64,000 nucleotides of DNA from Acidobacteriota bacterium (GTDB taxonomy: Bacteria > Acidobacteriota > Vicinamibacteria > Vicinamibacterales > UBA2999): positions 1,711 to 65,710 of the forward strand of contig JAEUQR010000136.1 of the NCBI GenBank assembly GCA_016789705.1, read 5' to 3'. Below, one piece after another: positions 11,847 through 38,412 of this stretch; positions within the stretch are counted from its first letter, which is position 1, and every line of letters starts with the position of its first letter. Made by a program: the position numbers and the translations under genes. The notes beneath the pieces are model-generated. The model did no database searches. It worked only from the letters and a program-made list of their open reading frames with translations, and had not been told where the DNA came from.

Positions 11847-11850
<4 letters not shown>
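11485..11850 (-). CDS. glnK: P-II nitrogen regulatory protein
   Basis: 121 aa with a GTG start overlapping the amtB stop (GTGA). MKLIVAIVRPEQLSDVLEAL...NYRGTTV (T-loop Tyr retained)...TGEVGDGKVMVLPIEKIYRIRTGEED is the P-II family signature. Linkage to amtB supports GlnK. Confidence 0.9.
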
Positions 11851-13133
<1,283 letters not shown>

Positions 13134-15025: not shown

Positions 15026-15048
15026 CGGCGCGCGGACCGGCCCGGGGG

Positions 15049-16650: not shown

Positions 16651-16866
16651 GGGCCAAGGTGCTCCACTCGCGGCGCCGATGGTCGGCTGCCGACTTCCCG
16701 GTGTAGAGCAAGTGCCACGCCACGTCGTGAGGCTCGCCACGGCCGCACCAAATCGGCCGGGGCCTGGAGCGGGTAAGCCTGCACTGCGGCAAAACTCGCG
16801 GACGATTCCCGGATCGGTATTTGCCGGCTCGTGGCCCGAACGTTGCAGCGGGGCTGACGAATCCGG

Positions 16867-19809
16867 ATGCCGTCCCCCAAGGCTGTTCCCGTCAGCGCGG
16901 CCAATCAGCGCGAAGTCGCGAAGTTTTCAGGCGTCGCCCACGCGAGGGCGCGCGCCCGGACGGCGAGGCGTCGCCCGAAGTGGCACACAGTGTGCCGTCT
17001 CGCGACACTCGTCGCCCTGTGTCTCGTACCGCAGACGGCTCGAGCCGATGATGGAGAGGCGGACCCCCGGCCGTCGGAACGCGGTCTTCCAACCGTGAGC
17101 ATCGTGCCACCCGCGCGGCTCGGCGCGCCCCAGCTCTTTGCCGTCTCCGTGGCCGGGCGCCGCCTCTACGTGGGAACGCTCACGGGACTGGCCATCCACG
17201 ACGGCGCGCACTGGGAGAACGTGCCATCGCCGCGTGCGCTCTACGCGGTGCACGGCGCATCGACCGGCCGCGTCATCGCCGGCGGCCCCGACAGCCTCGT
17301 CGAGCTGGCGCGGAGCGCCGACGGACACCGAGAACTGGTCTCGCTCCTCGACCGCCTGCCCGAGGGGGACCGCGTCATCGGCGACGTGCGATCGATCCAT
17401 GCGCTCGGCGACATCTTTTTCGCCGTCACCGACCGTGCCCTCGTGCGCGTGCGCGGCACCGAGGTGCACGTCGTGGACCGCTGGCGTTCCGATCCGCTGC
17501 GCCGCGGCTTCGTCAGCCAGGGGCGGCTCTACGTGACGTCGCAGAGCGGCGTTCGCGTTTTTGCCGCCGACGCGACGCCAGTGACCGACGAGGTCACGGC
17601 CCTCGCGGCCACTGGCGGCCGGGTGCTGTTCGTCGTCGATCACCCCGCGGCCGGGCAGGTCGTTGGCGTCGAGACACGCGGCCTGCTCACGCGTCGCGAC
17701 GGCGCCTGGCAGGCCGCCGGGCACGGCGGTGGCGAGCTGCTGAGACGCGGCATCACCGACGCGCGTGTGCTCGCAAGCGGCGCCCTCGCGCTTGGCAGCA
17801 CCACGGCCGGCGTGCTGCTGCTCACGCCGGAGCTCACCTTCGACCGTGCGCTCGGCCGCGCCGAGGGTCTGCCCTCGGGCGACGTGCAGAGCCTCAGCGA
17901 AGACGCGGAAGGCGGCGTGTGGGTGGTGAGCCCGGCCGAACTGGCCCGCGTGGATTTCGGCGCGCCGCTCACGCTCATCGACAGCCGGCTCGGCCTCGAA
18001 GGCACGGTCAACGGCGTGGCCCGCTTCGCCGGGCGGCTGCACGTGCTCACGACCTCGGGACTCTTCGTGCTCGACGACAACCAGGGACGGCGCCGCGCCA
18101 GGCCGGTGCCCGGCGTGCCGGCCCGCGCCTGGGACGCCTTCGATGCCGCCGAACATCTCCTCGTGGCCACGGCGTCGGGCATCTACGAGAGCCGGCCGTC
18201 GGGGGCCCGCCTCGTGCCGGGCACGGCGCGGCTGTCGTCCTACGTGCTGGCGCCGCGTGTCGACCGGCCCGACACGATACTCGTCGGCTCGCGCACGGGA
18301 CTCTCGGTGCTCGTGCGCCAGGGCAGCGGCTGGCGGTTCTCGCGTGACGTCACCGGCGCGCCGCGTTACGTGCGGACGATCGTGACGCGTCCCGACGGCG
18401 TCGTGTATCTCGGCACGACCTTCGACGGCCTCGTGCGCCTGCGCCTCGACGATCCGGCCGTGCCGCCGCGCACGCTCGTGCCCGGTGAGGTGCACCTGCG
18501 CGACATCGACGGCGCCCTGCACGTGCTCAACTACGAGACGAACACGCTGTCGGTGCTCGACGAGGCGCGGGAAACCGTGGCGCCGGCGGCGCTGCGCGGC
18601 GCGCACCTGCCCGAACACACGCTCCGTGTCGCCTACGACCCGGGCGGCGCGCTGTGGGCGACCGGCCGTGGCGTCGAGATGTTCGACCGCGGCACGGGCG
18701 CCATGCGGCCGGTTCTCGACCGCGCGGTGAGCGTGCAGGCGCTCGATATCGAGGACGACGGCGTGGTGTGGCTCGGCAGCAACATCGGGCTGTGGCGGTT
18801 CGCCAGTCCGCGGGCCACGCCGTGGACGTCGCGGCCGTCGCCGACGCTCGAGCGGGTCTTCGTCAATGGCCAGCCCGTGGCCCGGGCCCGTCCCGACGGC
18901 TCGCCGCTCGAGCTCGCGTTCGGCTTCGAGCGCCTGCGGCTCGAGCTCACGCCGAACACGTTCGCCCCGGACGCGGCGACCGCCTTCAAGCTCGAGCCGC
19001 TCGACGCCGACTGGAGCGCGGCCCGCCGCGGCGTCGTCGCCGAGTACACGTCGCTGCCGGAAGGCACCTACCGCCTGCGGATGCGGTCCGGCAGCGGGCC
19101 CGACCGAGCGGAAAGCGACTGGGCCTTCACCGTGCGGCCGCCGTGGTACCGCACGCCGCTCGTCTACCTGCTCGAGATCGCCGCCGCGGCCGGCCTGCTG
19201 CTGCTCGTGAGCCAGGTGCGCACGCACCAGCTCCGCCGCCGCTCGCATGAGCTCGAACGTGCGGTCATCGAGAAGACCGCGGCGCTACAGGAGGCCAACC
19301 GACGCCTCGCCGAACTTGCCTGGAGCGACGAACTCACGGCGCTCTACAACCGCCGCCACTTCGAGGAAGCGCTCGCCGAAGAGTGGGCGCGCGCACACCG
19401 TACGCGCAGTCCGATTGCGCTCGTGATGGTGGACATCGACCACTTCAAGTCGCTCAACGACACGCTCGGGCACGTCGCCGGAGACCGGGCGCTGCGGGCC
19501 GTGGCCGACGTGATCAAGGCCTGCGCCCGCCGTCCGGGCGACGTCGCCGCCCGTTATGGCGGCGAGGAGTTCGTGGTGCTGCTGCCGGGCGGACGCCGCG
19601 AGCGCGTGCACGCCCTCGCCGAAGAGATCCGCGAAGCCGTCGAGGCGCTGGCGCTGCCGCATCCCGGACACGCGCTCGGCAAGATCACGGTCAGCGTGGG
19701 TGTGGCGGCGGTCAACGCGCCCGAGAGTCTGCAGGCCACGCTCGTCGATGCGGCGGACCGCGCGCTCTACCGCGCCAAAGCCGCCGGCCGGAACGCGGTC
19801 GCCGCCTGA
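16867..19809 (+). CDS. Sensor diguanylate cyclase: periplasmic beta-propeller/Y_Y_Y-type domain, one TM helix, coiled coil, GGDEF domain
   Basis: 980 aa. The hydrophobic segment CRLATLVALCLVPQTARA is followed by a long repeat-rich extracytoplasmic region, then TM LVYLLEIAAAAGLLLLV, then a GGDEF domain with active GGEEF and an RxxD I-site (RPGD) 5 residues upstream. The start is uncertain; an in-frame GTG at 16990 is an alternative. Confidence 0.85.
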   Translation: MPSPKAVPVSAANQREVAKFSGVAHARARARTARRRPKWHTVCRLATLVALCLVPQTARADDGEADPRPSERGLPTVSIVPPARLGAPQLFAVSVAGRRLYVGTLTGLAIHDGAHWENVPSPRALYAVHGASTGRVIAGGPDSLVELARSADGHRELVSLLDRLPEGDRVIGDVRSIHALGDIFFAVTDRALVRVRGTEVHVVDRWRSDPLRRGFVSQGRLYVTSQSGVRVFAADATPVTDEVTALAATGGRVLFVVDHPAAGQVVGVETRGLLTRRDGAWQAAGHGGGELLRRGITDARVLASGALALGSTTAGVLLLTPELTFDRALGRAEGLPSGDVQSLSEDAEGGVWVVSPAELARVDFGAPLTLIDSRLGLEGTVNGVARFAGRLHVLTTSGLFVLDDNQGRRRARPVPGVPARAWDAFDAAEHLLVATASGIYESRPSGARLVPGTARLSSYVLAPRVDRPDTILVGSRTGLSVLVRQGSGWRFSRDVTGAPRYVRTIVTRPDGVVYLGTTFDGLVRLRLDDPAVPPRTLVPGEVHLRDIDGALHVLNYETNTLSVLDEARETVAPAALRGAHLPEHTLRVAYDPGGALWATGRGVEMFDRGTGAMRPVLDRAVSVQALDIEDDGVVWLGSNIGLWRFASPRATPWTSRPSPTLERVFVNGQPVARARPDGSPLELAFGFERLRLELTPNTFAPDAATAFKLEPLDADWSAARRGVVAEYTSLPEGTYRLRMRSGSGPDRAESDWAFTVRPPWYRTPLVYLLEIAAAAGLLLLVSQVRTHQLRRRSHELERAVIEKTAALQEANRRLAELAWSDELTALYNRRHFEEALAEEWARAHRTRSPIALVMVDIDHFKSLNDTLGHVAGDRALRAVADVIKACARRPGDVAARYGGEEFVVLLPGGRRERVHALAEEIREAVEALALPHPGHALGKITVSVGVAAVNAPESLQATLVDAADRALYRAKAAGRNAVAA

Positions 19810-21240: not shown

Positions 21241-22242
21241 CTACGACGCGGGTTCGACGGCTGGAGCCAGCGTGGCGGCGGCAGCCGGCTTCACGCCCAT
21301 CTGGCGCACGAACGTGTAGTGCGAGCGCAGCGCATCCAGGAGCGTGAGGTTTTCGCGGCAGGGCACGCCGTGCTCCGCGCAGACTTCCTGGACGATCTTC
21401 GAGAGCGCCGGGTAGTGGACGTGGGCGATGCGCGGAAACAGGTGGTGTTCGCGCTGGTAGTTCAGCCCGCCGAGCAGCAGCGTGGCCAGCCGGCTCCGCG
21501 TGGCGAAATTGGCGGTCGTGGCGATCTGGTGCACGACCCACTCGGGACGCTGCTCGCCGTGCGCGGGATGCTCGACGTTGTCGACCGTGTGCGCGAGCTG
21601 GAAGACGACGCTGAAGATGAAGCCCATCGTCATCGAGACGAGCACGTAGAGGCCGAAGACCGTGCCGGCGCCGTGGCGGGTGAGCGGAATGGCAAACGCC
21701 ACGGTGAAGAAGAACAGCTTGCCGCCGAGCAGCCACGCCATGTCGGCGCCCTTCGGATACCCGGCGCTCAGCCCGTCGTTCTTCCCGAGCAAGAGGCGCT
21801 GCAGGTCGCTGTAGAGATACCGCAGGTGCACGCAGGTGTAGAGCACCCACAGATAGACGTGCTGATACCGATGCCACCAGAACCACGGGTGATCGCCACT
21901 GAGCCGCGCCATCGGGCCGAGATTGATGTCGGCGTCCTCGTGCGGGATGTTCGTGTACACGTGGTGGTTGTGATTGTGCTTGTCTTTCCAGAAGTACGAA
22001 CTCGCCCCCATCAGGTCCAAGGTGAAGCCGGCGAGCCGGTTCACGAACGGCCGGCGCGAGAACGTGCCGTGGTTGCCGTCGTGCTGCACGTTGAAGCCGA
22101 TGCCCACGAGGGCCAGCGCCAGCAGGCCCGCGGACCAGACCACCGTGACGGGGGTCGCGGCGCCGAAGACCAGCACCACATACGCCCAGGTCGCCGTGGC
22201 GATGAGGGCCGCGGCCTTTCCGTACATGACGGGGCTGTCCAC
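21241..22242 (-). CDS. Membrane fatty-acid desaturase (His-box, QxxHH type)
   Basis: His boxes HDGNHG, HNHNHH and QREHHLFP, with 4 TM segments. The annotated GTG start probably truncates the true N-terminus (see findings). Confidence 0.85.
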   Translation of the reverse strand: MDSPVMYGKAAALIATATWAYVVLVFGAATPVTVVWSAGLLALALVGIGFNVQHDGNHGTFSRRPFVNRLAGFTLDLMGASSYFWKDKHNHNHHVYTNIPHEDADINLGPMARLSGDHPWFWWHRYQHVYLWVLYTCVHLRYLYSDLQRLLLGKNDGLSAGYPKGADMAWLLGGKLFFFTVAFAIPLTRHGAGTVFGLYVLVSMTMGFIFSVVFQLAHTVDNVEHPAHGEQRPEWVVHQIATTANFATRSRLATLLLGGLNYQREHHLFPRIAHVHYPALSKIVQEVCAEHGVPCRENLTLLDALRSHYTFVRQMGVKPAAAATLAPAVEPAS

Positions 22243-22543: not shown

Positions 22544-23182
22544 ATGTCGTCGGACAAGCAGGATCGTCGCGCCCTTCTTCTCGCCGGTCTCGGCCTCGCC
22601 ACCACGTCGGTGTCCCTCGGGGCGCGCGGCGTCCAGGCCCGGCCCACGGCCACGCCCTTCAGCCCCGCGCTCCACGAACAGGATGCCTGGATGTCGGCGA
22701 TGCCCGGCAAGCACCGCGTCGTGCTCGACGTCGTGTCACCCACCGGTGTGCCCGATGGCATCCGCTTCGCCGGCAATCTGTTCAACGGCAGCAAGTCGGG
22801 GTACGGCGTCGAGGAATCCGAGATGGCGCTCATCATGGTGCTGCGCCACTCGGCGACCGGGTTCGGCTACAACGACACCATCTGGTCGAAGTACGGCAAG
22901 ACGCTCGACTCGAAGGCGACGCCCCCGCCAGTGGCCAATCCCTTCAACTCCGGTGAGCGGATGCAGCTGTCGGGGCTGGCCAAGCGCGGCGTGCAGTTCA
23001 TCATCTGCGGCACGGCCAGCCGCGGCCTCGCTGGCCGGATCGCCGGTCAGGGCGGCGACGCCGACGCCGTGTTGAAGGAGATGTCGGCCAACCTCATCCC
23101 GAATGCGCGTATCGCGTCGGCCGGCGTGGTCGGCGTGACACACGCGCAGGAACACGGGTTCACCATGTTGTACGTCGGTTAG
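22544..23182 (+). CDS. Tat-signal periplasmic protein, DsrE/DsrF-like fold (tentative)
   Basis: Starting at the internal ATG with GGAG 8 nt upstream. MSSDKQDRRALLLAGLGLATTSVSLGA is a twin-arginine signal. The core HRVVLDV...IMVLRHSA...VQFIICGTASRGL resembles DsrE-family strands and the conserved Cys loop, and shares a CGxA motif with the 28198 gene. Confidence 0.45.
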   Translation: MSSDKQDRRALLLAGLGLATTSVSLGARGVQARPTATPFSPALHEQDAWMSAMPGKHRVVLDVVSPTGVPDGIRFAGNLFNGSKSGYGVEESEMALIMVLRHSATGFGYNDTIWSKYGKTLDSKATPPPVANPFNSGERMQLSGLAKRGVQFIICGTASRGLAGRIAGQGGDADAVLKEMSANLIPNARIASAGVVGVTHAQEHGFTMLYVG

Positions 23183-23193
23183 GAGTCGTTACC

Positions 23194-24285
23194 ATGCGCG
23201 CCATTGTCGGACTCGCGACGGCGGTTGCCGTCATCTCTGCCGCTCCGCTTGCGGCCCAGCCCGCGGGCGATGCCGCCCGCATCGCCGAAGCCGTCCAGAT
23301 CCTGCCCGAGGACCTGCGGGCTGGCGCCACGGTGGTGACCTACGACGCGGCCACCGGCGCGCGCCGCGTCATCCGTCAGGGCACCAACTTCATCGAGTGC
23401 CAGCCGCGCAACCCGGCGGACGGCTTCGCCCGCTGCTACCACAAGCTGTTCGGACCGCGGGAGGACTTCGAAGCGAAGCTGCGGGCCGAGAAGAAGACCG
23501 AAGAGCAGGTCAGCCAGGCGGTGGCCGCCGCCGTCAAGGCCGGCACCCTGCCGCCGATGCCGCAGGGCGTGATGTCGTACCGCCACTACGACAAGCGCGA
23601 CCGCATCCAGCACCTGTGGGTCTGGTCGACGCCGAACAGCACGCCGGAGTCGGTGGGCGTCTCGACGGTGAGCCAGCGCAACGAAGCGCTCGAAGGCCGC
23701 GGCCTGCCGTGGATGATGCTGCCCGGCACGCCCGGCGCGCACATCATGATCCCGATCAATCCGAAGCCCACGAAGACCAGCATCACGGACGTGGCGGCGG
23801 ATCCCGTGACGCAGGCGACGCTGCCGCTGCCGCAGGACCTGCGGGCCGGCGCCACGGTGTACACCTACGACGCCAACGGCGATCGCAAGGTGCTGCGGCC
23901 CGGCACCAACCAGATCGAGTGCATGCCGCGCGGCGACGACGGCTTCACCTGGTGCTACAACAAGTCCGGCGGGCCGCGTCGGGACCTCGCCGCCAAGCTG
24001 CGCGCGCAGAAGAAGACCGACAAGGAAATCGCGGACGCGATGGCCGAGGCCACCAAGGCCGGCACGATCAAGCCGACCGAGTTCGGCACCATGTCGTACC
24101 GCCTCTACGGCAAGCCCGACCGCATCCAGCTGCTGTGGGTGATCTCGGTGCCCGGGGCGACGCCCGAATCGATTGGCGTCACCACCGCCAGTGCCCGTGA
24201 AGACGCGCTCGAACTGCGCGGCACGCCGTGGCTGATGCTGCCGGGCACGCCCGGCGCGCACATCATGGTGCCGGTCAACAAGTAG
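23194..24285 (+). CDS. Secreted protein of unknown function made of two tandem copies of a ~150-aa domain
   Basis: 363 aa with AGGAG RBS and a signal peptide (MRAIVGLATAVAVISAAPLAAQ). Residues 37-189 and 212-362 align end to end (LPxDLRAGATVxTYDA...GTNxIEC.PR...MSYR.Y...DRIQ.LWV...TPES.GV...PW.MLPGTPGAHIM.P.N). I do not recognise the family. Confidence 0.7.
   Translation: MRAIVGLATAVAVISAAPLAAQPAGDAARIAEAVQILPEDLRAGATVVTYDAATGARRVIRQGTNFIECQPRNPADGFARCYHKLFGPREDFEAKLRAEKKTEEQVSQAVAAAVKAGTLPPMPQGVMSYRHYDKRDRIQHLWVWSTPNSTPESVGVSTVSQRNEALEGRGLPWMMLPGTPGAHIMIPINPKPTKTSITDVAADPVTQATLPLPQDLRAGATVYTYDANGDRKVLRPGTNQIECMPRGDDGFTWCYNKSGGPRRDLAAKLRAQKKTDKEIADAMAEATKAGTIKPTEFGTMSYRLYGKPDRIQLLWVISVPGATPESIGVTTASAREDALELRGTPWLMLPGTPGAHIMVPVNK
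23302..24279 (+). repeat. Intragenic tandem duplication (unit 1 at 23302-23760, unit 2 at 23827-24279)
   Basis: By hand alignment, roughly 95 of about 150 residues are identical between units. Nucleotide similarity is also visible, e.g. ctgcgggctggcgccacggtggt vs ctgcgggccggcgccacggtgta, and ccgtggatgatgctgcccggcacgcccggcgcgcacatcatgat vs ccgtggctgatgctgccgggcacgcccggcgcgcacatcatggt. Confidence 0.75.
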
Positions 24286-24376
24286 GACGCCGGCCCTGTC
24301 CACGCGCTCGTCCTCACCGCTCGTTCACACGGGCCTCGTCCGCGCGCACGGCCTGGCGGCGCTCGTCACGCTGCTG

Positions 24377-25717
24377 GTGTCGGTCACCTTCGGTCTCGTG
24401 GCCGCCTGGCAGCTCATCGCGCCCGACCTCGGGCGCGACGTGGCGTGGCTCGGCTGGGGCCGCGTGCGCTACGCGCACACGCAGGGCATCATGCTCGGCT
24501 GGCTGGCGAACGCGTTCTTCGCGTTCCTCTACCACGCCGTGCCGATCCTCACGGGCCGGCCGGTCACGAGTGCGCGCCTCGGCGTGTGGATCTTCGCGCT
24601 GTGGAACTTCGCGGTGATGGCGCCGGGCTGGACGCTCGTGCTCGCCGGCGTCAGTCAGCCGCTCGAGTGGGCCGAATTCCCGCTCGTCGTCGACGTCGTG
24701 GCGATTCTCGCGCTGGCGCTCGCCGGCGTGCAGTTCCTGCCCGGCTTCTTCCGCCGCGGCATCGAGTCGCTCTACGTCTCGAGCTGGTACATCATCGGCG
24801 GCCTCGTCTTCACGCTGCTCTCGTATCCGATGGGCAACGTCGTGCCGGAGTTCCTGCCCGGCGCGGCTGGCGCCGCCATCAGCGGCCTGTGGATTCACGA
24901 CGCCGTCGGACTGTTCGTGACGCCGATGGCGCTCGCCATCCTCTACTTCGTCATCCCCGCGTCCACCGGGCGGCCGATTTTCAGCCACTTCCTGTCGATG
25001 CTGGGGTTCTGGCTGCTGTTCTTCCTCTACCCGCTGAACGGCACCCATCACTACGTCTACTCGGTCATCCCGATGGCGGCGCAGCTCACGGCGATCGTGG
25101 CCTCGGCGCTGCTCGGCGTGACGGTGGTCATCGTGGTGACGAACCTGTTCCTGTCGATGCGTGGCGCCGGCCTGCTGCCGGCCGACCCGGCGCTTCGCTT
25201 CGTGGGCGCCGGCACGTTCTTCTACGTCGTCGTCAGCCTGCAGGGCTCGGCGCAGGCGCAGATGGCCGTGAACGAGACCGTGCATTTCACCGACTGGGTC
25301 GTGGCGCATTCGCACATGGCGATGCTCGGTTTCGCGAGTTACGCGGCCGCCGCCGGACTGGTGCACGCCTGGCAGCGCATGCCGGCCGCGCGCTACAACG
25401 CCGCCGCCATCTCGTGGGCGTACTGGCTCATCACGATCGGCCTCGTCGGCATGGTCGTGGACCTCACGATCGGCGGCCTCGTGCAGGGCGAGCTCTGGAA
25501 GAGCGGCGCGCCGTGGATCGATTCGGTCACCGCCTCCCGGGTCTACTGGGTGGCGCGCGCGCACATCGGCAGCATCCTCGCCGCCGGCTTCATCGCCCTG
25601 CTCGTGGGTCTCACGACCGGCCCCCGCGGGGCCGGCATGGCCGTGCGTTCGGCGCCGCCGGCTGACGGCCACGACGAAGTGGCGCCCCGGCTCGCCCCGG
25701 TCACGGAGGCCGTGTGA
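24377..25717 (+). CDS. ccoN: cbb3-type (C-family) haem-copper oxidase catalytic subunit, divergent
   Basis: 446 aa from a GTG start. All six metal/haem His positions fit the C-family pattern: RYAHTQG, GLWIHDAVGLF (cf. HNAVGF), GTHHY, HFTDWVVAHSHMAMLG. The N-terminal boundary is uncertain. Confidence 0.8.
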   Translation: MSVTFGLVAAWQLIAPDLGRDVAWLGWGRVRYAHTQGIMLGWLANAFFAFLYHAVPILTGRPVTSARLGVWIFALWNFAVMAPGWTLVLAGVSQPLEWAEFPLVVDVVAILALALAGVQFLPGFFRRGIESLYVSSWYIIGGLVFTLLSYPMGNVVPEFLPGAAGAAISGLWIHDAVGLFVTPMALAILYFVIPASTGRPIFSHFLSMLGFWLLFFLYPLNGTHHYVYSVIPMAAQLTAIVASALLGVTVVIVVTNLFLSMRGAGLLPADPALRFVGAGTFFYVVVSLQGSAQAQMAVNETVHFTDWVVAHSHMAMLGFASYAAAAGLVHAWQRMPAARYNAAAISWAYWLITIGLVGMVVDLTIGGLVQGELWKSGAPWIDSVTASRVYWVARAHIGSILAAGFIALLVGLTTGPRGAGMAVRSAPPADGHDEVAPRLAPVTEAV

Positions 25718-26952
25718 GCCGCGCCGGTCAGGCTCTGCGCACCTCGTACCTCGTGGCCTGCGTGGCCGGCGTGGCGTTCTTCGTGCTGTCGGTGGCGCTG
25801 CTCGGCGTCTGGCCGGCGCGTGTGCTCGACGCCCAGACGGCCGCGATGGCGCCCGAGAAGCCGCTCGAGCCGACGACCAGCGAGAAGCGCGGCCGTGCCG
25901 TGTATGCGCGCGAGGGCTGCGCCTACTGCCACACGCAGCAGATTCGTTATCTGCACGCCGACATGGCGCGCTTCGGCGCGCCGACGCTCGCGTGGGAGAC
26001 GCGTCGCGACACGCCGCACCTCTGGGGCACGCGCCGCATCGGGCCCGACCTGAGCCGCGTCGGCGGCGCGCGCAGCCTCGACTGGCACTACGCGCATCTC
26101 TACGCCCCGCGCGCGATCGTCGCGTCGTCGGTCATGCCCGGATACCCGGCGCTTTTCGACGGCGCGCCCGACCGGCCGCGCCAGGACGCGCGCGATCTCG
26201 TGGCCTATCTCGACTCGCTTGGCCGGGCCCGCGAACTTGCCGGCCCCGAAGGTGAGGCGCGGGCGAAGGAGGGCTGCAACTGTCCGGACGACGAGATGCA
26301 GCAGATGGCGTTCGAGGGGGCGCTCAACGCGCATCCGGCTCGTGCCATCCGCACCCTCGAGTCGGCGCCGTCGCTTGCGGGAGGCGACCTCGCCCGTGGC
26401 CAGGCGCTCTACGGACGGCACTGTGCCAACTGTCATGGCGCGACCGGGGCCGGTGACGGCCCCGGCGCCCGCTACCTCGTGCCCGCGCCCGCGAGACTCG
26501 CCGAGCACAGCTACACGACGGCGCGGCTCGCCGAAGTGCTGTGGCACGGCGTGGCCGGGTCGGCGATGCCGGCGTGGCGCGATCACTCCACCGAAGATCG
26601 CGCGGCGCTGGCGCGCGCGGTGCAGGCGCTCTCGGCGCCGCGGCCGGAACCCGAGGTGCCGGCGCATCTCGTGGCGCTCGGCCGCGACGTCTACGCCGCG
26701 AACTGCGCGCAGTGCCACGGCGTCGACGGCGATGGCCGCGGCTCGGCGGCCGCCAAACTCGCGATGGCGCCGGCCAACTTCACCGCGCAGCGCCTCAGCC
26801 TCACCGAAGCCGTGCGGGTGCTGCGCGAAGGGGTGCACGGGTCGCCGATGGCGCCGTGGACGACCCGTCTCACCGACGCCGAACGGCTGGCCGCCGCGCA
26901 CTACGTGCGCAGCCTGTTCCGCGCGACGCCGCCCGCGACCGAGGCCCGATGA
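25714..26952 (+). CDS. Fused CcoO-CcoP: monohaem FixO-type subunit II joined to a dihaem cytochrome c domain (three CxxCH)
   Basis: 412 aa with GGAGG RBS and a GTGA overlap with ccoN. N-terminal TM anchor. FixO signature GRAVYAREGCAYCHTQQIR...GTRRIGPDLSRVG...DWHYAHLYAPR...SVMPGYP, then CANCHGATGAGDG and CAQCHGVDGDGRG modules as in CcoP. Confidence 0.8.
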   Translation: MSRAGQALRTSYLVACVAGVAFFVLSVALLGVWPARVLDAQTAAMAPEKPLEPTTSEKRGRAVYAREGCAYCHTQQIRYLHADMARFGAPTLAWETRRDTPHLWGTRRIGPDLSRVGGARSLDWHYAHLYAPRAIVASSVMPGYPALFDGAPDRPRQDARDLVAYLDSLGRARELAGPEGEARAKEGCNCPDDEMQQMAFEGALNAHPARAIRTLESAPSLAGGDLARGQALYGRHCANCHGATGAGDGPGARYLVPAPARLAEHSYTTARLAEVLWHGVAGSAMPAWRDHSTEDRAALARAVQALSAPRPEPEVPAHLVALGRDVYAANCAQCHGVDGDGRGSAAAKLAMAPANFTAQRLSLTEAVRVLREGVHGSPMAPWTTRLTDAERLAAAHYVRSLFRATPPATEAR

Positions 26953-27134
26953 TCTCCGACCTCATCGTCTGGGCGTCGGTCGGCTTCGCCGTGGCGTTTG
27001 TCGCCGCCTGGGCGGCCTCGCCGGCGCTGCGGGCGCGGATCGAGCGGCCCAAGCACCACTTCCTGGAATCGGCGCGGCAGTATGATGCGGCGGCACGGCC
27101 CGGCGGGCCGTCCCCTGATCCGAGAACGCCATGA
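26949..27134 (+). CDS. Small single-TM protein, candidate CcoQ-like accessory subunit
   Basis: 61 aa, MISDLIVWASVGFAVAFVAAWAAS... The ATG overlaps the ccoO-P stop (ATGA), and its own stop overlaps the next ATG (ATGA). The call rests on position and topology only. Confidence 0.4.
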   Translation: MISDLIVWASVGFAVAFVAAWAASPALRARIERPKHHFLESARQYDAAARPGGPSPDPRTP

Positions 27135-28165
27135 GTCCCAACGAGTCCCGTGGCCTGCCCGGTCTGGCGGGCATCGTCATCGTCACGCTCGCCATCGGTG
27201 GCGCGGCCGTCGTGGCCGGGCTGCGGTATTCGGCGGTCGAGCCGGGCGGGTCGTCCGACGCGGCATCGCCGACGGCGCCTGCCAACTCGGGCGCCGAACG
27301 TCCGCGTCCGCCGCGTCCGGTGACGGATGTGCCCGAGCACGCCACCGAGGAGTACGGCCGCCGCCTCGTCGCGCAGACGGTCGAACTACTCGGTCCCGAC
27401 CACCCGGATCCGACGCGCCGCTACTCCGGCGGACGCCTCAACTGTGCCTCGTGTCACCTGGCGACCGGCACCGACCCCGGCACGCTGGCACTGCTGCAGA
27501 CGGCCGAACACTACCCGCGTTTCTCGGGCCGCGCCGGCAACATGACCGACGTCGAGGACCGCATCAACGAATGCATGCAGCGCAGCATGAACGGCAAGCC
27601 GCTGCCGCTCGATAGCCCCGAGATGATCGCCATCGCCGCCTACCTGCGGTCGCTCGGTTCGCGCTACGAGGCGATGGGCGCGTCGCTGAAGAAGGCGAGT
27701 GAGCCGCCCGCCTTCAAGACGCCGAAGCGGGCAGCGAGCCTCGAGGCCGGCCAGACCGTGTACGGCGCGCGCTGCTCGGTGTGCCACGGCAACGACGGGC
27801 TGGGCCTGCTCGCCACTGGTGAGAAGGCCAAAGGTTATCTGTTCCCGCCGCTCTGGGGGCCCGACTCGTTCAACAACGGCGCCGGGATGCACCGCGTGCT
27901 GACCGCGGCGCGGTTCATCAAGGCGCGCATGCCGCTCGGCGAGGCCACCCTCACCGACGACGAGGCGTTCGACGTCGCCGCGTACATCAACGCGCAGCCG
28001 CGGCCCGAGATGCCGAACCTCGAGCAGGACTACCCGGACAAGACGGCCAAGCCCGTGGACAACCCGTACGGGCCGTTCGCCGACGACTTTCCGCTCGAGC
28101 AGCACCGCGTCGGCCCGTTCCAGCCGATCGAAGAGCACTACAAGGCGCTCAAGAAGACCAAGTAG
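27131..28165 (+). CDS. Membrane-anchored dihaem cytochrome c, TsdA-like (thiosulfate dehydrogenase family)
   Basis: 344 aa. N-terminal TM (LAGIVIVTLAIGGAAVVAGL) plus a Pro-rich linker. Haem 1 is CASCH with a Cys 39 residues downstream in DRINECMQRSMNG (the His/Cys-ligand position of TsdA/SoxA). Haem 2 is CSVCHG followed by YLFPPLWGPDSFNNGAGMHRV...FIKARMPLG. Confidence 0.7.
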   Translation: MSPNESRGLPGLAGIVIVTLAIGGAAVVAGLRYSAVEPGGSSDAASPTAPANSGAERPRPPRPVTDVPEHATEEYGRRLVAQTVELLGPDHPDPTRRYSGGRLNCASCHLATGTDPGTLALLQTAEHYPRFSGRAGNMTDVEDRINECMQRSMNGKPLPLDSPEMIAIAAYLRSLGSRYEAMGASLKKASEPPAFKTPKRAASLEAGQTVYGARCSVCHGNDGLGLLATGEKAKGYLFPPLWGPDSFNNGAGMHRVLTAARFIKARMPLGEATLTDDEAFDVAAYINAQPRPEMPNLEQDYPDKTAKPVDNPYGPFADDFPLEQHRVGPFQPIEEHYKALKKTK

Positions 28166-28183
28166 CGCCGGCGGCGCCGGCGC
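28165..28183 (+). other. Intercistronic perfect GC hairpin between the TsdA-like gene and the DsrE-like gene
   Basis: gcgccggc-ggc-gccggcgc, an 8-bp stem starting at the last base of the TAG stop. It is followed by GGAGA and the ATG at 28198. No U-tract, so it is more likely an mRNA-stability or processing element than a terminator. Confidence 0.3.
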
Positions 28184-28197
28184 GTGGAGATTCGCTC

Positions 28198-28737
28198 ATG
28201 ACCAGGACCCTGCTGGCTCTCTCGTGTGGCGTTGCCCTGCTCGCCACGGTGTCATCCGTCTCGGCGCAGGCGCTGCCCGTGCCCGGTGTCGAGGCCGCGC
28301 GTGACGTCCCCGGCGCGAAGGAGATGCCGAACCCGTCGATCGTGCACAAGGTGGTCTTCGACATGGCCACGGCGAGCCCCACGCCCACCGAGGTGCACCC
28401 GATGCTGCAGGCGGTGGCGCGCTACGTGAACACGCTGGCGAAGACGGGCGTGCCGGCGGCCAATCGCAAGGTGGCCGTGGTGTTCCACCAGGGCGCGACC
28501 GATTACATCATGACCAACGAGTCGTACAAGCCGCGCCATGAAGGGCACGACAATCCGAATCTGCCGATGATCCAGGCGCTGAAGAAGGCCGGCGTGGACT
28601 TCCGCGTCTGCGGCCAGGCCACGCTCGGCCGCAAGATCGACGCGAAGGACATCATGCCCGAGGTGCAGCGCGACCTCTGGGCGCTCACCACGCTCATCGC
28701 CCTGCAGCAGCAGGGCTACGTGCTCATCGCGCCGTAG
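28198..28737 (+). CDS. Sec-exported DsrE-family protein
   Basis: 179 aa with signal peptide MTRTLLALSCGVALLATVSSVSAQA. HKVVFDMATASP...VAVVFHQGATDYI...DFRVCGQATLGRKI...LQQQGYVLIAP shows the DsrE/DsrF-like layout with a conserved Cys loop. Confidence 0.65.
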   Translation: MTRTLLALSCGVALLATVSSVSAQALPVPGVEAARDVPGAKEMPNPSIVHKVVFDMATASPTPTEVHPMLQAVARYVNTLAKTGVPAANRKVAVVFHQGATDYIMTNESYKPRHEGHDNPNLPMIQALKKAGVDFRVCGQATLGRKIDAKDIMPEVQRDLWALTTLIALQQQGYVLIAP

Positions 28738-28741
28738 GGCG

Positions 28742-31700
28742 TCACTTCGGCACCACGGCCGGCACGTTGCGATCGCGCACCAGCCGGTTGAACGCCGCCA
28801 GGTCATCGCCGAGCAGCGTGGTCGCGCTGCGCTGCTGACGGGCCCAGTCTTCGCCGAGCGCGGCGAGCCTCGCCTGCTGACCGTCGGTCGTGCCGCTGTC
28901 GCTCGCGTCGATCGCGCTGCGCAGGTAGATGTAGTACTGGTTGAGGCGCTGCGGGAAGTTGATGACCGTCTGCCCGTCGACGACGCGCTTCTGTACGAGC
29001 GCGTCCTCGAGCGCGTTCAGCTTCTCGACGTAGGCGCGCCCGGCCTTCTCGATGGCCTCGCCGCCCGGCGTGCCCTTCGTCCGCGTGATCACGTCTTCCA
29101 CCTGACGGCGGACGTCGCGCAGCCGGATGACCGCGCGGTGCACGGCGTTCAACTGCTCGTCCACGCGCACGTGCAGGTCCTGCTGGGCCTGGAGTTCGCT
29201 CATCGGCGTCGTGACGCGCGGGTCCATGCGCACGGTGAGGGGCGTGGTGAGCGTGCGTCCGCCGGCCGTGAGCCGCACCTGGTAGTCGCCGGGCAGCACG
29301 CGTCGGCCCTGCAGGGTGCCGAACACGTAGAGCCCGGGCACCGGCACGGCGGGATCGTAGCGGAGGTTCCACACGAGGCGGTTGAGCCCCGCCTTCACGG
29401 TGAGCGCGCCAGGCGGCGCGTCGAGTGAGACCGGCGCGTCGGCCTCGGGCTTCTTCGTCGAGTAGCGGCGCACCACGGCGCCGCCCTTCAGGATGTCGAT
29501 CGAGACATCGCCCTCGGGCACTTTCGCGAGCCAGACGTTGATGAGCGCGCCATCCGGCGCGCTCCGCCCGGCCCGGGGATTTCCGCCGCCGAAGCCGCCG
29601 AAGGCCTGCGTGCGCCAGGCGGCGCGCGGCGTGAACAGGCGCACGTCGGTGGCGGCGGTCGCATCGTTCCACTGCTGCAGCACCGACACGTCGTCGAGGA
29701 TCCAGAACGCGCGGCCGGCCGTCGACGCCACGAGATCGCCGCGATGCACGCGCAGGTCGGTGATGGGCGTCACCGGCAGGTTGAGCTGCAGGCGCTGCCA
29801 GCGCTGGCCGCCGTTGAACGAGACGTAGAAGCCGGTCTCGGTGCCCAGGTAGAGCAGGTCGCGGCGCACCGGGTCTTCGCGCACCACGCGCGCCCAGGCC
29901 TCCGGCGCGATGCCGTCTACGATCTTCGTCCACGTCGCGCCGAAGTCGGTGGTCTTGAAGACGAGCGGCGTGAAGTCGTTGAACTTGTACTTCGAGATCG
30001 TGACGTAGGCCGTGGCCGGCGCATGCGGCGATACCTCGATGATGTTGACCATCGCTTCGCCGACGCCCGGCGGCGTCACGTTCTTCCAGGTCTTCCCGCC
30101 GTCGCGCGTGAGCTGCACGTAGCCGTCGTCGGTGCCCACCCACAGCGTGTTCGCGTCGTGCGGCGACTCGGCGATGTCGTCGATGACGCCGTAGGTCTCG
30201 CCGCCGGCGCCTTCGTTCGTGATCGGCGCGCCGCCGGGGCCCTGCTTCGTGATGTCGTTGCGCGTCAGGTCGGGGCTCGCCTCCCGCCAGGTCTTCCCGC
30301 GGTTGTCGGATCGCAGCAGCACGTTGCCGCCGTGATAGATGACCGACGGATTGAAGCGGGACACGACGATTGGCGCGCTCCAATTGAAGCGGTACTTCTG
30401 TTCGCGCGGCGGCACCGCCGCCGGCATCTGCGGCCACGCCATGATGTCGCGTTCGGTCCTGAGCGAGTCGTCGAACTCGCTGATGATGCCCATGTAGCAC
30501 CCGGCGTAGACGTAGCGCGGATTCTTCGGGTCGAAGGCCGGCACGGCGCTTTCGCAGCCGCCGACGTCGTACCAGTCGCGTTCGGTAATCCCGCCGGGCG
30601 CGGCGCTCGCGATCTTGACCGACGTGTTGTCCTGCTGGCCGCCGTAGACGTTGTAGGGGAACTGGTCGTCGACGTTCACGCGGTAGAACTGCGCGGTGGG
30701 CTGGTTGCCCTGCGTGGACCAGGTGCGGCCGCCGTTGAACGATACGTTGGCGCCGCCGTCATTGCCCTCGATCACGATCTCGGGATCGCGCGGGTTGAAC
30801 CAGATGCTGTGGTTGTCGCCGTGCGGCGTGCGCACGCTCGTGATGCTGCGGCCGCCGTCGATCGACTTGCTGACGTCGGCATTCAGCACCCAGACGACGT
30901 CTGGATTCTTCGGGTCGGCGGCGACCTTCATGTAGTACCAGGCGCGCGCGTGCAGCGTCCACGCCTCGTTCACGAGCGTCCACGTCTTCGCGCCGTCGTC
31001 GGAACGGTAGAGGCCGCCCTTCGGATCCGCCTCGACCACCGCGTAGAGTCGATCCGGGTTGGCCGAGACGTCGATGCCGATCTTGCCGACCGTGGCCGGG
31101 AGGCCCGTCATCATGCGCTGCCACGTCGTGCCGCCGTCGGTGGACTTGTGAATGCCGCTGCCGGGGCCGCCGCTGCGCACCTGCCAGGGCTGCCGCAGGT
31201 GATCCCACATCGCCGCGTAGAGGATGCGCGGGTTGGTCGGATCCATCGCGAGCTCCGACGGGCCCGTGGTCTCGTTCACGAACAGGACCTGCGTCCAGGT
31301 GCGGCCGCCGTCGGTCGAGCGGTAGACGCCGCGGTCCTTCGTGGGGCCGTAGGCGGCGCCCTGAGCGGCGACGAGCAGCGTATCGGGGTCTGTCGGGTGG
31401 ACGCGGATGCGCGAGATCTGCCGCGTGCGTTCGAGGCCAAGGTGTGTCCACGTGCGGCCGGCGTCGGTCGACTTGTAGACGCCGTCGCCGTGTGAGGTCA
31501 TCACGCCGCGGATGGGATGTTCGCCCATGCCCACGTAGATGACGTTCGGATCGGAGGGCGCCACGGCGATGGCGCCCACGGACGACGTGTTGAGCTGGCC
31601 GTCGGTGATATTGGCCCAGGTCTCGCCGCCGTCCGTCGTCTTCCACACGCCGCCGCCGACGCCGCCGAAGTAGAAGGTGCGCGGCTCCTGTGCGACGCCG

Positions 31701-31876
31701 CTCACGGCGACGACGCGGCCGCCGCGGAACGGCCCGATGTTGCGCCACTGCAGAGCCGCGAGCGACGGGCTGTCGAACTGCGGTGCGGGTGGCGCGGATG
31801 GCGTCTGCGCGACGGCGGACAGGCTGGCGGCCACGACGGCGGCAAGGATGGTGAGCGCGGATGATGGGCGAGTCAT
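28742..31876 (-). CDS. Secreted BNR/Asp-box repeat protein (sortilin/VPS10- or GH74-like double beta-propeller)
   Basis: 1044 aa with a signal peptide. At least ten S-x-D-x-G-x-T-W Asp-boxes are present (TTDGGETW, STDAGRTW, STDGGRTW, STDGGTTW, SDDGAKTW, TRDGGKTW, TTDFGATW and others). Confidence 0.85.
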   Translation of the reverse strand: MTRPSSALTILAAVVAASLSAVAQTPSAPPAPQFDSPSLAALQWRNIGPFRGGRVVAVSGVAQEPRTFYFGGVGGGVWKTTDGGETWANITDGQLNTSSVGAIAVAPSDPNVIYVGMGEHPIRGVMTSHGDGVYKSTDAGRTWTHLGLERTRQISRIRVHPTDPDTLLVAAQGAAYGPTKDRGVYRSTDGGRTWTQVLFVNETTGPSELAMDPTNPRILYAAMWDHLRQPWQVRSGGPGSGIHKSTDGGTTWQRMMTGLPATVGKIGIDVSANPDRLYAVVEADPKGGLYRSDDGAKTWTLVNEAWTLHARAWYYMKVAADPKNPDVVWVLNADVSKSIDGGRSITSVRTPHGDNHSIWFNPRDPEIVIEGNDGGANVSFNGGRTWSTQGNQPTAQFYRVNVDDQFPYNVYGGQQDNTSVKIASAAPGGITERDWYDVGGCESAVPAFDPKNPRYVYAGCYMGIISEFDDSLRTERDIMAWPQMPAAVPPREQKYRFNWSAPIVVSRFNPSVIYHGGNVLLRSDNRGKTWREASPDLTRNDITKQGPGGAPITNEGAGGETYGVIDDIAESPHDANTLWVGTDDGYVQLTRDGGKTWKNVTPPGVGEAMVNIIEVSPHAPATAYVTISKYKFNDFTPLVFKTTDFGATWTKIVDGIAPEAWARVVREDPVRRDLLYLGTETGFYVSFNGGQRWQRLQLNLPVTPITDLRVHRGDLVASTAGRAFWILDDVSVLQQWNDATAATDVRLFTPRAAWRTQAFGGFGGGNPRAGRSAPDGALINVWLAKVPEGDVSIDILKGGAVVRRYSTKKPEADAPVSLDAPPGALTVKAGLNRLVWNLRYDPAVPVPGLYVFGTLQGRRVLPGDYQVRLTAGGRTLTTPLTVRMDPRVTTPMSELQAQQDLHVRVDEQLNAVHRAVIRLRDVRRQVEDVITRTKGTPGGEAIEKAGRAYVEKLNALEDALVQKRVVDGQTVINFPQRLNQYYIYLRSAIDASDSGTTDGQQARLAALGEDWARQQRSATTLLGDDLAAFNRLVRDRNVPAVVPK

Positions 31877-31967: not shown

Positions 31968-33626
31968 GTGATGGGGCCGCGGTCACACGGGACGGAACCG
32001 GCGCCAATGGCCACAGAGACACACGCGGCACGGCCCGGCGAGGTCACCGCCTCCGACGTCGCCGCGCAGTCGCCGCTCAGCTTGTTCGACACCTGGCGCG
32101 ACGACCTGCCGGCCGGCATCGTGGTGTTCCTCGTGGCCCTGCCGCTCTGCCTCGGCATCGCCGTGGCCTCGGGCGTGCCGGTCCTGGCCGGACTCGTCGC
32201 CGGCGTCGTCGGCGGGCTCGTCGTGGGCGCGCTGTCGGGTTCCACACTGATGGTGAGCGGCCCGGCGGCCGGGCTCACGCCGATCGTCCTCCTCGGCATC
32301 CAGCAGCTCGGCAGCTTCGAACGGCTGCTGCCCGCGGTGATTCTGGCCGGCGGGCTGCAACTGGTGCTCGCCGCCGTGCGCGCCGGCACGGTGGCGTATT
32401 ACATCCCGTCGTCGGTCGTGAAGGGAATGCTCGCCGGCATCGGCCTCACGCTCATCCTCAAGCAGGTGCCGCACGCCGTCGGCTACGACGCCGATGCCGA
32501 AGGCGACATGTCGTTCATCGAGGCGTCGGGGCAGACCACGCTCAGCACCCTCGCCGAGTCCTTCCAGCAGATCCAGCCGGCGGCCATCGTGGCCGCGCTG
32601 CTCGGCATCGCCGTGATGCTCTGGTGGCCGCGTTCGCCCTTCGCGCGTGTGCGGCTGCTGCCGGCGCCGCTCATCGCCGTCGCCATCGGCGTGCTGGTGA
32701 ACGAAGCGCTGCGGGCGTTGCTGCCCGACCTGGCCGTGCGCGGCACGCACCTCGTGTCGCTGCCAGACATGGGGTTCGGCGCCGTGGCTCCCCACCTCGT
32801 CGTGCCTGACTGGAGCGGACTCTGGACGGCCGGCGTGTGGGAGTTCGCCGTCATCATCGCTCTGGTCGCCAGTCTCGAGACGCTGCTCGGCCTCGAAGCC
32901 ACCCGCAAGCTCGATCCGCTGCGCCGCGAGGCGCCGGTCAATCGCGAACTGCTCGCGCACGGCGTCGGCAACCTCGCCGCGGGACTGCTCGGCGGGCTGC
33001 CGATTGCCGGCGTCATGATCCGGTCGTCGGCCAACGTCGATGCCGGCGCCCGCTCGCGGCTGTCGGTGCTCGTGCACGCCGCGTTGATGCTGACCGCCGC
33101 CCTCACGCTCGGCGCGTTGCTGAACCGCATTCCGCTGGCCGCCGTGGCCTCGGTGCTGCTCGTGACCGGCTTTCGCCTGGCCGCGCCCTCGCTCTGGCGC
33201 CACGCCTGGCGGCTCGGCCCGAGCCACTTCATCCCGTTTGTCGTGACCGCGCTGGCCATTGTCTTCACCGACGTGCTGCGCGGCATCGGCGTCGGCGTGG
33301 CCGTGGGCATCGTGTTCATCGTCATGGAGCACCTGCGCAGCCCGGTGTTCTCGCGTGTCAGCCCGCCAGGCGCCGTGCTCACGCGCTACGCGCTGCCCGA
33401 GCAGGTCACCTTCCTGAGCAAGGCCAGCATCTCGCGCGCCCTCAATGCGCTGCCGTCCGGCACGCGCGTCGAGATCGACGGCCGCCGCACCTCGCGTTTC
33501 GACCACGACGCGCTCGAAGTGCTGCACAGCTTCCGCGACACCGCGCGCCTGCGCGGCATCGACTACCGGCTGGTGGGAATTCCCGAAACGGAACTGCCGC
33601 CCACGCACGACTTCGACCCCGACTGA
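31968..33626 (+). CDS. SulP-family anion (sulfate/bicarbonate) transporter with C-terminal STAS domain
   Basis: 552 aa. DLPAGIVVFLVALPLCLGIAVASG is the SulP N-terminal motif, followed by about 10-12 TM segments and a C-terminal STAS-like region (VTFLSKASI...LEVLHSF). The start is ambiguous (GTG 31968, ATG 31971 or ATG 32007). Confidence 0.9.
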   Translation: MMGPRSHGTEPAPMATETHAARPGEVTASDVAAQSPLSLFDTWRDDLPAGIVVFLVALPLCLGIAVASGVPVLAGLVAGVVGGLVVGALSGSTLMVSGPAAGLTPIVLLGIQQLGSFERLLPAVILAGGLQLVLAAVRAGTVAYYIPSSVVKGMLAGIGLTLILKQVPHAVGYDADAEGDMSFIEASGQTTLSTLAESFQQIQPAAIVAALLGIAVMLWWPRSPFARVRLLPAPLIAVAIGVLVNEALRALLPDLAVRGTHLVSLPDMGFGAVAPHLVVPDWSGLWTAGVWEFAVIIALVASLETLLGLEATRKLDPLRREAPVNRELLAHGVGNLAAGLLGGLPIAGVMIRSSANVDAGARSRLSVLVHAALMLTAALTLGALLNRIPLAAVASVLLVTGFRLAAPSLWRHAWRLGPSHFIPFVVTALAIVFTDVLRGIGVGVAVGIVFIVMEHLRSPVFSRVSPPGAVLTRYALPEQVTFLSKASISRALNALPSGTRVEIDGRRTSRFDHDALEVLHSFRDTARLRGIDYRLVGIPETELPPTHDFDPD

Positions 33627-33640
33627 GGAATCAACCGCTC

Positions 33641-38377: not shown

Positions 38378-38406
38378 TTGACAGCCACGCCGGGCGGCGC
38401 AACCAT
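38378..38406 (+). promoter_or_regulatory. Candidate promoter TTGACA-17 nt-AACCAT, 6 nt upstream of the protease ATG (leaderless-type)
   Basis: TTGACA at 38378-38383, AACCAT at 38401-38406, ATG at 38413, and no SD. Confidence 0.35.
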
Positions 38407-38412
38407 GACCTC

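Follow-up and report, generated by a model that had tools for sequence, protein, structure and literature searches.

The thiosulfate dehydrogenase TsdA is a dihaem cytochrome c in which a Cys-ligated haem forms the active site, where two molecules of thiosulfate are joined to tetrathionate through a Cys S-thiosulfonate (PMC4423706). Replacement of the Cys ligand inactivates the enzyme, and the Met ligand of haem 2 is strictly conserved (PMC5146829). A soluble chain in which TsdB, a dihaem cytochrome of the c4 type, relays electrons from TsdA to a cbb3-type oxidase was previously proposed (PMC9237845). Described here is an operon that appears to bring such components together within a single membrane module. 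It was found in a 64,000-nt stretch of DNA (the window; G+C content approximately 70%) from contig JAEUQR010000136.1 of an Acidobacteriota bacterium of the lineage UBA2999, whose CcoN, by the named sources of its matches, falls in Vicinamibacterales, and comprises seven co-directional plus-strand genes at positions 22544-28737 (Table 1). Its four core genes encode a divergent subunit I of a cbb3-type oxidase (CcoN), a fused CcoO-CcoP protein (CcoO-P), a 61-aa membrane peptide and a membrane-anchored TsdA-like cytochrome; these are preceded by genes for the exported proteins p1 and p2, and followed by that for a third, p7. The operon is read here as encoding a specialised cbb3-type O2 reductase, the electron-entry side of which would be built for a sulfur substrate, such that electrons would flow from thiosulfate to O2; a probability of roughly 55% is given to this reading.

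The locus is made up of parts from known families, and a precedent exists for an operon that links a donor to an oxidase. Acidithiobacillus ferrooxidans has, in its rus operon, the genes for Cyc2, Cyc1, rusticyanin and an aa3 oxidase together, and their products form a hard-wired path from Fe(II) to O2 by which the quinone pool is bypassed. The present locus likewise groups a putative donor-oxidising cytochrome, candidate carriers and a terminal oxidase. The rus system differs in its donor, Fe(II), and in its use of an A-family oxidase, an outer-membrane cytochrome and a copper carrier, homology between the two being confined to the oxidase superfamily.

A closer comparison is provided by the canonical ccoNOQP operon, as in Pseudomonas stutzeri (3MK7/5DJQ). 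Common to both are the His ligands and Tyr of CcoN, a monohaem CcoO, a small helical peptide, an anchored dihaem cytochrome encoded last, and tight coupling of the genes. The locus departs from the canonical operon in that its CcoN is very divergent, with Gln in place of Glu323, a shortened CcoO carries a fused CcoP-like dihaem domain, no similarity to CcoQ is detectable in the peptide, the cytochrome encoded last is a TsdA homologue, and no ccoGHIS genes lie nearby. That cytochrome, in turn, shares with the characterised TsdA proteins (those of Allochromatium vinosum, 4V2K/4WQ7, and Campylobacter jejuni, and the TsdBA protein of Marichromatium purpuratum, 5LO9) a two-domain dihaem fold, Cys96, Met209 and an Arg pocket. 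It is distinguished from them by a membrane anchor, by approximately 90 extra N-terminal and 50 extra C-terminal residues, by Arg in place of Lys208, and by the location of its gene inside an oxidase operon rather than alone or beside tsdB, with no separate gene for a TsdB or high-potential iron-sulfur protein partner.

Table 1. Features of the operon, each gene being given from its start codon to the end of its stop codon. L numbers denote loci of related genomes.
Feature	Position	Strand	Start codon	Evidence or loci
p1, twin-arginine translocation (Tat)-signal periplasmic protein of predicted DsrE fold, invariant Cys155 (FIICGTASRG)	22544-23182	+	ATG	Predicted fold, alignment
p2, Sec-signal periplasmic protein, two homologous domains	23194-24285	+	ATG	Translation, homologue alignment
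ccoN, divergent C-family haem-copper oxidase subunit I	24296-25717	+	CTG (probable)	COX1, 1.5e-55
ccoO-P, ccoO fused to C-terminal dihaem cytochrome c (CcoP-like/c4-like) domain, three CxxCH	25714-26952	+	GTG	FixO, 2.6e-38
p5, 61-aa single-helix membrane peptide, ccoQ position	26949-27134	+	ATG	Hydrophobic helix, conserved C-terminal segment
tsdA-like, membrane-anchored dihaem cytochrome c of TsdA family, ccoP position	27131-28165	+	ATG	PDB A. vinosum TsdA, 5.5e-40
GC-rich perfect hairpin, 8-bp stem, 3-nt loop	28165-28183	+		T-run absent; GGAG after; overlapped only by a minus-strand terminator-like call
p7, Sec-signal periplasmic DsrE-family protein, conserved Cys (FRVCGQATLG)	28198-28737	+	ATG	Pfam DsrE, 1.8e-12
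Tandem p1 pair in related loci	upstream of ccoN			L007, L009, L010, L014-L022, L024, L026, L027, L030, L032, L037, L039, L041, L063

A TsdA-Type Cytochrome in the ccoP Position

An earlier note on this DNA, made from the sequence alone, had described the sixth gene product as TsdA-like, with a Cys at the axial-ligand position, and this assignment is borne out by comparison with proteins of known structure. Residues 90-294 of the protein align with chain residues 34-237 of A. vinosum TsdA (AvTsdA) at the E-value given in Table 1, and the TsdBA fusion in the PDB is matched at E=1.7e-31. The Pfam family SoxA-TsdA_cyt-c (PF21342) is matched at 1.8e-12, while the second domain matches Cytochrome_CBB3. 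Each of the haem-associated positions of AvTsdA, namely C49xxCH53, Cys96, C160xxCH164 and Met209, has its counterpart in the window protein. The distal Cys of haem 1 (Cys96) is found in RINECMQRSMNG, which aligns with RIGDCFERSLNG of AvTsdA, and this column is Cys in 74 of 75 homologues, the lone exception being a frameshifted stretch. Both CxxCH motifs are kept in 74-75 of the 75 homologues, as are R82, R92 and R99, the Arg residues of the TsdA pocket, and an N-terminal hydrophobic anchor is present in 73 of 74 of the TsdA-like proteins.

The earlier note had also proposed a check of the Met/Lys ligand columns. Met209 of haem 2 (Met255 in the C. jejuni enzyme) occurs here within FIKARMP and is Met in 73/75 homologues. 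The position of Lys208 is occupied by Arg in the window protein and in 69/75 homologues. The residue preceding the haem-2 Met is known to vary among TsdA proteins, and the bias of the reaction is not readable from sequence (PMC5146829). An identity as SoxA was considered for the protein and rejected, given a score of 50 bits on TIGR04484 against a cut-off of 110 and the absence of sox genes among those callable in the window.

The Oxidase Genes

The first canonical start codon of the ccoN frame is GTG 24377, and a protein starting there would be deprived of transmembrane helix I. Upstream of this GTG the frame remains open, and its product there, LVHTGLVRAHGLAALVTLL, can be aligned both with helix I of the P. 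stutzeri protein and with homologous N-termini. At 24296, in the same frame, a CTG follows an AGGA by 8 nt and the stop of p2 by 10 nt; it is conserved in approximately 20 close relatives, and falls no more than three codons from the ATG or GTG starts of other, more distant members of the CcoN clade. This non-canonical CTG is thus probably the true start of ccoN, and consequently the gap between p2 and ccoN, earlier put at no more than 91 nt, is probably only 10 nt. Gene callers choose the internal GTG and thereby shorten CcoN to 446 aa.

CcoN aligns with its P. stutzeri counterpart (3MK7_A) across helices I-XII, and all six metal-ligand His residues are in register: H60 and H347 for the low-spin haem b, H345 for haem b3, and H207, H257 and H258 for CuB. 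The cross-link Tyr of helix VII (the equivalent of Y251), by which O2 reductases are separated from nitric oxide reductases (NORs), precedes the HH pair by six residues (FFLYPLNGTHH) and, as Y218 in the 446-aa numbering, is invariant across the alignment of CcoN homologues. Since the six His ligands and the helix-VII Tyr are kept, CcoN reads as an O2 reductase with a complete active site. A NOR identity of subunit I was rejected, the Tyr251 and CuB His residues being present and a NOR-type signature absent.

The earlier description of this enzyme as a divergent cbb3 oxidase proved apt: its COX1 match is strong and its ligands are all kept, and it fails the curated equivalog models, scoring 161 bits against a cut-off of 583 on TIGR00780 (ccoN), 118 against 201 on TIGR00781 (CcoO) and 59 against 180 on TIGR00782 (CcoP). 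By these scores, the oxidase is a divergent C-family subfamily and not the canonical proteobacterial enzyme. Among the features of the CcoN clade is an invariant Gln (20/20 sequences; window positions 25241-25243, Gln289 in the 446-aa numbering) at the position of Glu323 of P. stutzeri, a residue conserved in the cbb3 enzymes studied and situated close to the proximal ligand (His) of haem b3.

The fusion of CcoO with CcoP is likewise supported. The FixO match of ccoO-P (132 bits vs a cut-off of 29.6) extends over positions 15-146 of the 219 in the profile, indicative of a shortened CcoO, and beyond it lie two Cytochrome_CBB3/Cytochrom_C domains; NF011054 is matched at 1.8e-45, and matches in the PDB include both CcoO (1e-30) and CcoP (1e-9). 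For the 61-aa peptide, a search of Pfam and NCBIfam returned no family match and homology with CcoQ was not shown; the peptide is analogous to CcoQ in position and topology only.

Both the open reading frame (ORF) layout and a reading of the junctions reproduced the seven-gene arrangement and the three 4-nt overlaps of the earlier note. The p1-p2 gap is 11 nt in length and contains GGAG; ccoN and ccoO-P overlap by GTGA, ccoO-P and the 61-aa ORF by ATGA, and the 61-aa ORF and the tsdA-like gene again by ATGA. The 32-nt gap that follows the tsdA-like gene holds the hairpin and a GGAG that precedes the ATG of p7. A promoter and terminator scan returned no promoter-like site and five weak terminator-like sites, against 2.0 expected, none of which was convincing. 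As had also been stated, neither sox nor ccoGHIS genes were found among all the genes callable in the window.

Conservation of the Core Module

One genome per species was scanned with the CcoN-homologue alignment, and 425 species genomes were found to carry this CcoN clade. The counts of loci given here refer to the best 80 of the 425 (67-95% identity), taken with 8-kb flanks and searched by tblastn with the seven window proteins and extra queries; clustering of ORFs in the flanks was noisy, spurious GC-rich ORFs being frequent, and targeted tblastn was used for the flank counts. The 80 loci are mostly from Vicinamibacterales, Bryobacterales and other Acidobacteriota, with about a dozen from Woeseiaceae or other Pseudomonadota.

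The genes ccoN, ccoO(P), the peptide gene and tsdA occur in the same order and orientation in 73 of the 80 loci, and the remaining seven loci end, or seem by their length to end, shortly after ccoO-P. Recurring as it does in 73/80 related loci, the arrangement is far beyond chance. The 4-nt overlaps are also kept, in 59 loci between ccoN and ccoO-P, in 54 between ccoO-P and the peptide gene and in 47 between the latter and tsdA, with overlaps of -4 or -1 flanking the peptide gene. Three CxxCH motifs are found in CcoO-P in 73/80 loci, and the helix of the peptide is followed by the motif LRAWIERPK(H/Y)xF...YD, conserved in 73 loci. The divergences of the four core genes are correlated (rho of 0.68-0.84). 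Judged from these comparisons of sequence and order, the four core genes are one inherited module, having crossed between phyla. Conservation of gene order in relatives, without which the hypothesis of the earlier note would fail, was found for the four core genes in both Acidobacteriota and Gammaproteobacteria; it does not extend to p1, p2 and p7 as fixed parts.

The labels of some of the genomes are at odds with the module that they carry. Loci L017, L028, L031, L039, L054 and L081 bear names such as 'uncultured Bifidobacteriaceae', 'Acidimicrobiia' or 'Rhodospirillaceae' despite having a module of the Acidobacteria/Woeseia type, and these are probably mislabelled or misbinned metagenome-assembled genomes rather than real hosts. 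In locus L021, a second C-family oxidase is encoded approximately 3 kb downstream of the module (14536-16800, plus strand) as a fusion of CcoN and CcoO that scores strongly on both COX1 and FixO, and the TsdA-linked module would therefore be an extra, specialised oxidase in that genome.

Exported Companions and Variable Flanks

Both p1 and p7 had been described as exported DsrE-like proteins with a Cys in a shared loop. The case of p7 is straightforward, as it passes the Pfam DsrE model (PF02635) with 47.9 bits against a cut-off of 22.7, and the p7-type neighbours in L035 and L046 pass it too; a sequence search of the PDB with p7 returned only spurious ankyrin-repeat matches. With p1, the family model and the fold gave different answers. 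A Pfam search gave no match at E<=0.1, so that the DsrE model failed, and a sequence search of the PDB likewise gave none, whereas an AlphaFold2 (AF2) model (predicted local distance difference test, pLDDT, of 81) was matched by Foldseek to ST0148 (2PD2) and MTH1491 (1L1S) with a probability of 1.0, TMt of 0.77-0.80 and 17-20% identity. It is for this predicted fold, and for the JGI annotation of p1 homologues as DsrE/DsrF family, that p1 is called DsrE-like here. The shared Cys loop has held up in both proteins: C155 is invariant among p1 homologues, as is the twin-arginine (RR) signal, and the Cys of p7 is conserved in 35/35 p7-type homologues. In each case, the conserved Cys may be a sulfur carrier. 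The two proteins are exported, whereas the characterised DsrE3A-type thiosulfonate carriers are cytoplasmic.

A second, more distant relationship of p1 was also detected. All 26 of 26 aligned p1 homologues weakly match NF052225, an NCBIfam model named 'thiosulfate dehydrogenase' (best 3.4e-7; window p1, 16.5 bits), and distant members of the family, found with the p1 profile, reach 5e-12 and 45.6 bits with most of the model covered, against a cut-off of 300 bits. Because these scores are so far below the cut-off, p1 is, on this sequence comparison, a remote relative of NF052225 and not a member or equivalog. The model was presumably built on the 25-kDa periplasmic thiosulfate dehydrogenase (TSD) of A. 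ferrooxidans (AFE_0042), although this link is an assumption. If it is correct, p1 is like TSD in being a small exported protein with consistent matches to NF052225, having in addition the predicted DsrE fold and one invariant Cys, and differs in that its family scores lie an order of magnitude under the cut-off (16-46 against 300 bits). In A. ferrooxidans, the genes for TSD are accompanied by doxDA and by rhodanese and thiosulfate-oxidising genes (PMC6335251).

Each of the two domains of p2 has a conserved Cys pair and a Met/His-rich motif, PW(M/L)MLPGTPGAHIM, and p2 homologues have a mean column identity of 81%. No family in Pfam or NCBIfam was matched above threshold (DUF6166 was sub-threshold, at E=0.02), and the AF2 model (pLDDT 83) gave no PDB fold match at E<=0.001. 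A role for p2 as a copper chaperone was entertained and is unsupported beyond the Met/His motif.

Around the core, the flanks are variable and repeatedly sulfur-themed, at least one such neighbour being present in 72/80 loci. Genes of the p1 type occur in 52/80; in Vicinamibacterales they often form a tandem pair upstream, and in Woeseiaceae they lie downstream on the opposite strand. In many Vicinamibacterales relatives two tandem p1 paralogues stand upstream of p2 (Table 1); the window has one only. The p2 gene is found in 42/80 loci, with a single-domain form in Bryobacterales (e.g., L046 13074-13682, minus strand). DsrE genes of the p7 type are present in 26/80, usually divergent and just upstream of ccoN in Bryobacterales, while the window's own p7 occurs mainly in its closest relatives. 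Directly after the tsdA-like gene, a secreted tandem rhodanese is encoded in 13/80 loci, at 11747-12646 (plus strand) in L035 and in 12 other Bryobacterales/Terriglobia; behind it there often come a DsrE gene of the p7 type and a gene of the p2 type. In three of the 80 loci (L035, L036 and L053), a Tat-exported Mo enzyme of the sulfite-oxidase family is encoded near the core, and other neighbours include TauE/SafE (8/80 loci) and BLH_phosphatase/DUF442 (7/80); these, like the rhodanese, were confirmed with Pfam.

Proposed Pathway and Alternatives

Given that the TsdA-like gene holds the slot of ccoP in the canonical ccoNOQP operon, the simplest reading is that its product would be an oxidase subunit, or an obligate docked partner, in place of CcoP. 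The TsdA-like subunit, anchored through its N-terminal helix at the periplasmic side of the oxidase, would oxidise two S2O3 2- to S4O6 2- at its His/Cys haem, via a Cys S-thiosulfonate as in A. vinosum TsdA. The two electrons released would then be passed to the His/Met haem, to the two haems fused to CcoO, to the CcoO haem and on to haem b, and thence to haem b3-CuB, where O2 would be reduced; five c haems would thus make up the chain overall. Such a route would bypass quinone, bc1 and soluble cytochromes, with energy still conserved at the oxidase. The tetrathionate/thiosulfate couple (~+0.2 V) is well below that of O2/H2O, and the driving force is ample. More speculatively, the exported Cys-bearing DsrE-fold proteins p1 and p7, together with p2, might handle the substrate or product; by analogy with carriers of the DsrE3A type, they could bring in thiosulfate, or bind tetrathionate or thiosulfate on their Cys, the former in the form of a protein thiosulfonate, and the rhodanese and sulfite-oxidase-type enzyme of relatives might do similar work. 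The full scheme, in which the four core products form one membrane thiosulfate:oxygen oxidoreductase with a catalytic TsdA-type subunit replacing CcoP, and p1, p7, p2 and rhodanese constitute a previously unrecognised periplasmic sulfur traffic that recycles tetrathionate or feeds in protein-bound sulfur, is offered tentatively, as a possible elaboration of the more general reading.

A number of points weigh against an oxidase dedicated to thiosulfate. That the TsdA-like protein and the oxidase associate physically is deduced solely from where the gene lies, from its coupling and from the membrane anchor of the protein. The presence of Arg for Lys208 of the oxidation-biased A. vinosum enzyme leaves the bias of the reaction unreadable, and the Gln in place of Glu323 means that the kinetics of this CcoN clade may differ from those of the cbb3 enzymes studied. 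The accessory genes, being variable, are not essential to core function, and no obvious fate for tetrathionate is apparent within the window. Finally, all 80 loci come from metagenome-assembled genomes, no cultured carrier having been identified.

Of the alternatives, the one that survives best retains the complex and changes its chemistry. The Cys-ligated haem would couple thiosulfate, sulfite or persulfide to the Cys of p1 or p7, in the manner of SoxAX and SoxY, with electrons still delivered to O2. SoxA shares the mechanism of TsdA (PMC4423706), and the TsdA-like protein does score on the SoxA model TIGR04484 (2.2e-13). A gene for a Cys-bearing periplasmic DsrE-fold protein of the p1 or p7 type is found beside the core in most loci, and the rhodanese, sulfite-oxidase-type enzyme and TauE of relatives would fit a multi-step pathway. 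However, the SoxA score of the protein is less than half of the cut-off for that model, and its sequence is much nearer to that of TsdA than to SoxA (2.3e-8 in the PDB). Moreover, SoxX, SoxYZ and SoxB were not found among the genes callable in the window, and several full-length loci (L034, L057) have no DsrE-type gene within 8 kb. Conjugation of this kind is thus regarded as a serious variant, albeit one with the odds well against it.

It is unlikely that the TsdA-like protein is a mere electron-entry cytochrome, replacing CcoP and fed by soluble cytochromes, with sulfur neighbours that are unrelated to it. Its gene does take the ccoP slot, it has the layout of CcoP (an N-terminal helix and two c haems), its second domain matches Cytochrome_CBB3, and C-family oxidases vary in their cytochrome c subunits (PMC11214002). 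Against this, a CcoP-like dihaem domain is already fused to CcoO, the sulfur-related neighbours recur in 72 of the 80 loci, and the catalytic Cys and three Arg are retained in 74-75/75 homologues across two phyla. His/Cys haems have very low potentials, and conservation of such a pocket would therefore be unexpected in a plain relay.

There is little support for the last proposal, that the Cys haem and DsrE-like proteins guard the oxidase against poisoning by sulfide, sulfite or polysulfide, which they would remove or sense, or that the enzyme serves mainly in NO reduction, for while it would suit a second, specialised C-family oxidase, such as that of L021 with an ordinary CcoN-CcoO fusion 3 kb away, and C-family oxidases can reduce NO in vitro (PMC11214002), the CuB ligands and cross-link Tyr are intact with no NOR-type signature, no likeness to a sensor output was seen in the module, and the tight translational coupling of the four subunits points to a stoichiometric enzyme.

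Significance

A full-text search of the literature turned up no account of tsdA within a cco operon or of an oxidase subunit of the TsdA type, and in public annotations the genes are entered as "cbb3-type cytochrome c oxidase subunit I" or "hypothetical". Present in many species of two phyla, the module suggests an undescribed direct route from thiosulfate-type compounds to O2. Thiosulfate holds a central place among the intermediates of sulfur cycling in soils and sediments, where carriers of the module are among the most abundant bacteria, and these organisms are usually scored as non-sulfur-oxidisers or simply as cbb3-bearing. If the full scheme set out above is true, thiosulfate would be a source of energy, independent of Sox, a quinone step and bc1, for abundant soil and sediment heterotrophs of the Vicinamibacterales, Bryobacterales and Woeseiaceae. 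With a dedicated oxidase wired to a TsdA-type haem, both the turnover of thiosulfate or tetrathionate and the genes for "high-affinity oxidases" would be read differently in metagenomes. C-family oxidases would also gain a new subunit architecture, and a large set of TsdA homologues would gain a physiological electron acceptor. For three uncharacterised exported families, p1, p2 and the p7-type DsrE proteins, the locus provides a functional context.

Neighbouring Genes

On one side of the operon is a fatty-acid desaturase gene (21241-22242, minus strand), divergent from it, and on the other a Sortilin/BNR gene (28742-31876, minus strand) that converges on it and begins 4 nt beyond the p7 stop; the remainder of the window consists of housekeeping genes. 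At 31968-34420 (plus strand), a gene for a SulP-family permease has immediately after it one for a beta-carbonic anhydrase, a pairing more suggestive of bicarbonate than of sulfate transport and apparently unrelated to the operon. No ORF passing the codon-position G+C filter is present at 38400-40050. Approximately 6 kb upstream of the operon, a gene for a Tat-signal multicopper oxidase (15049-16740, minus strand) adjoins a gene (16867-19809) whose large product combines GGDEF with regulator-propeller repeats. This gene, together with the MqnD, MqnB-like and desaturase genes, is syntenic in locus L001.

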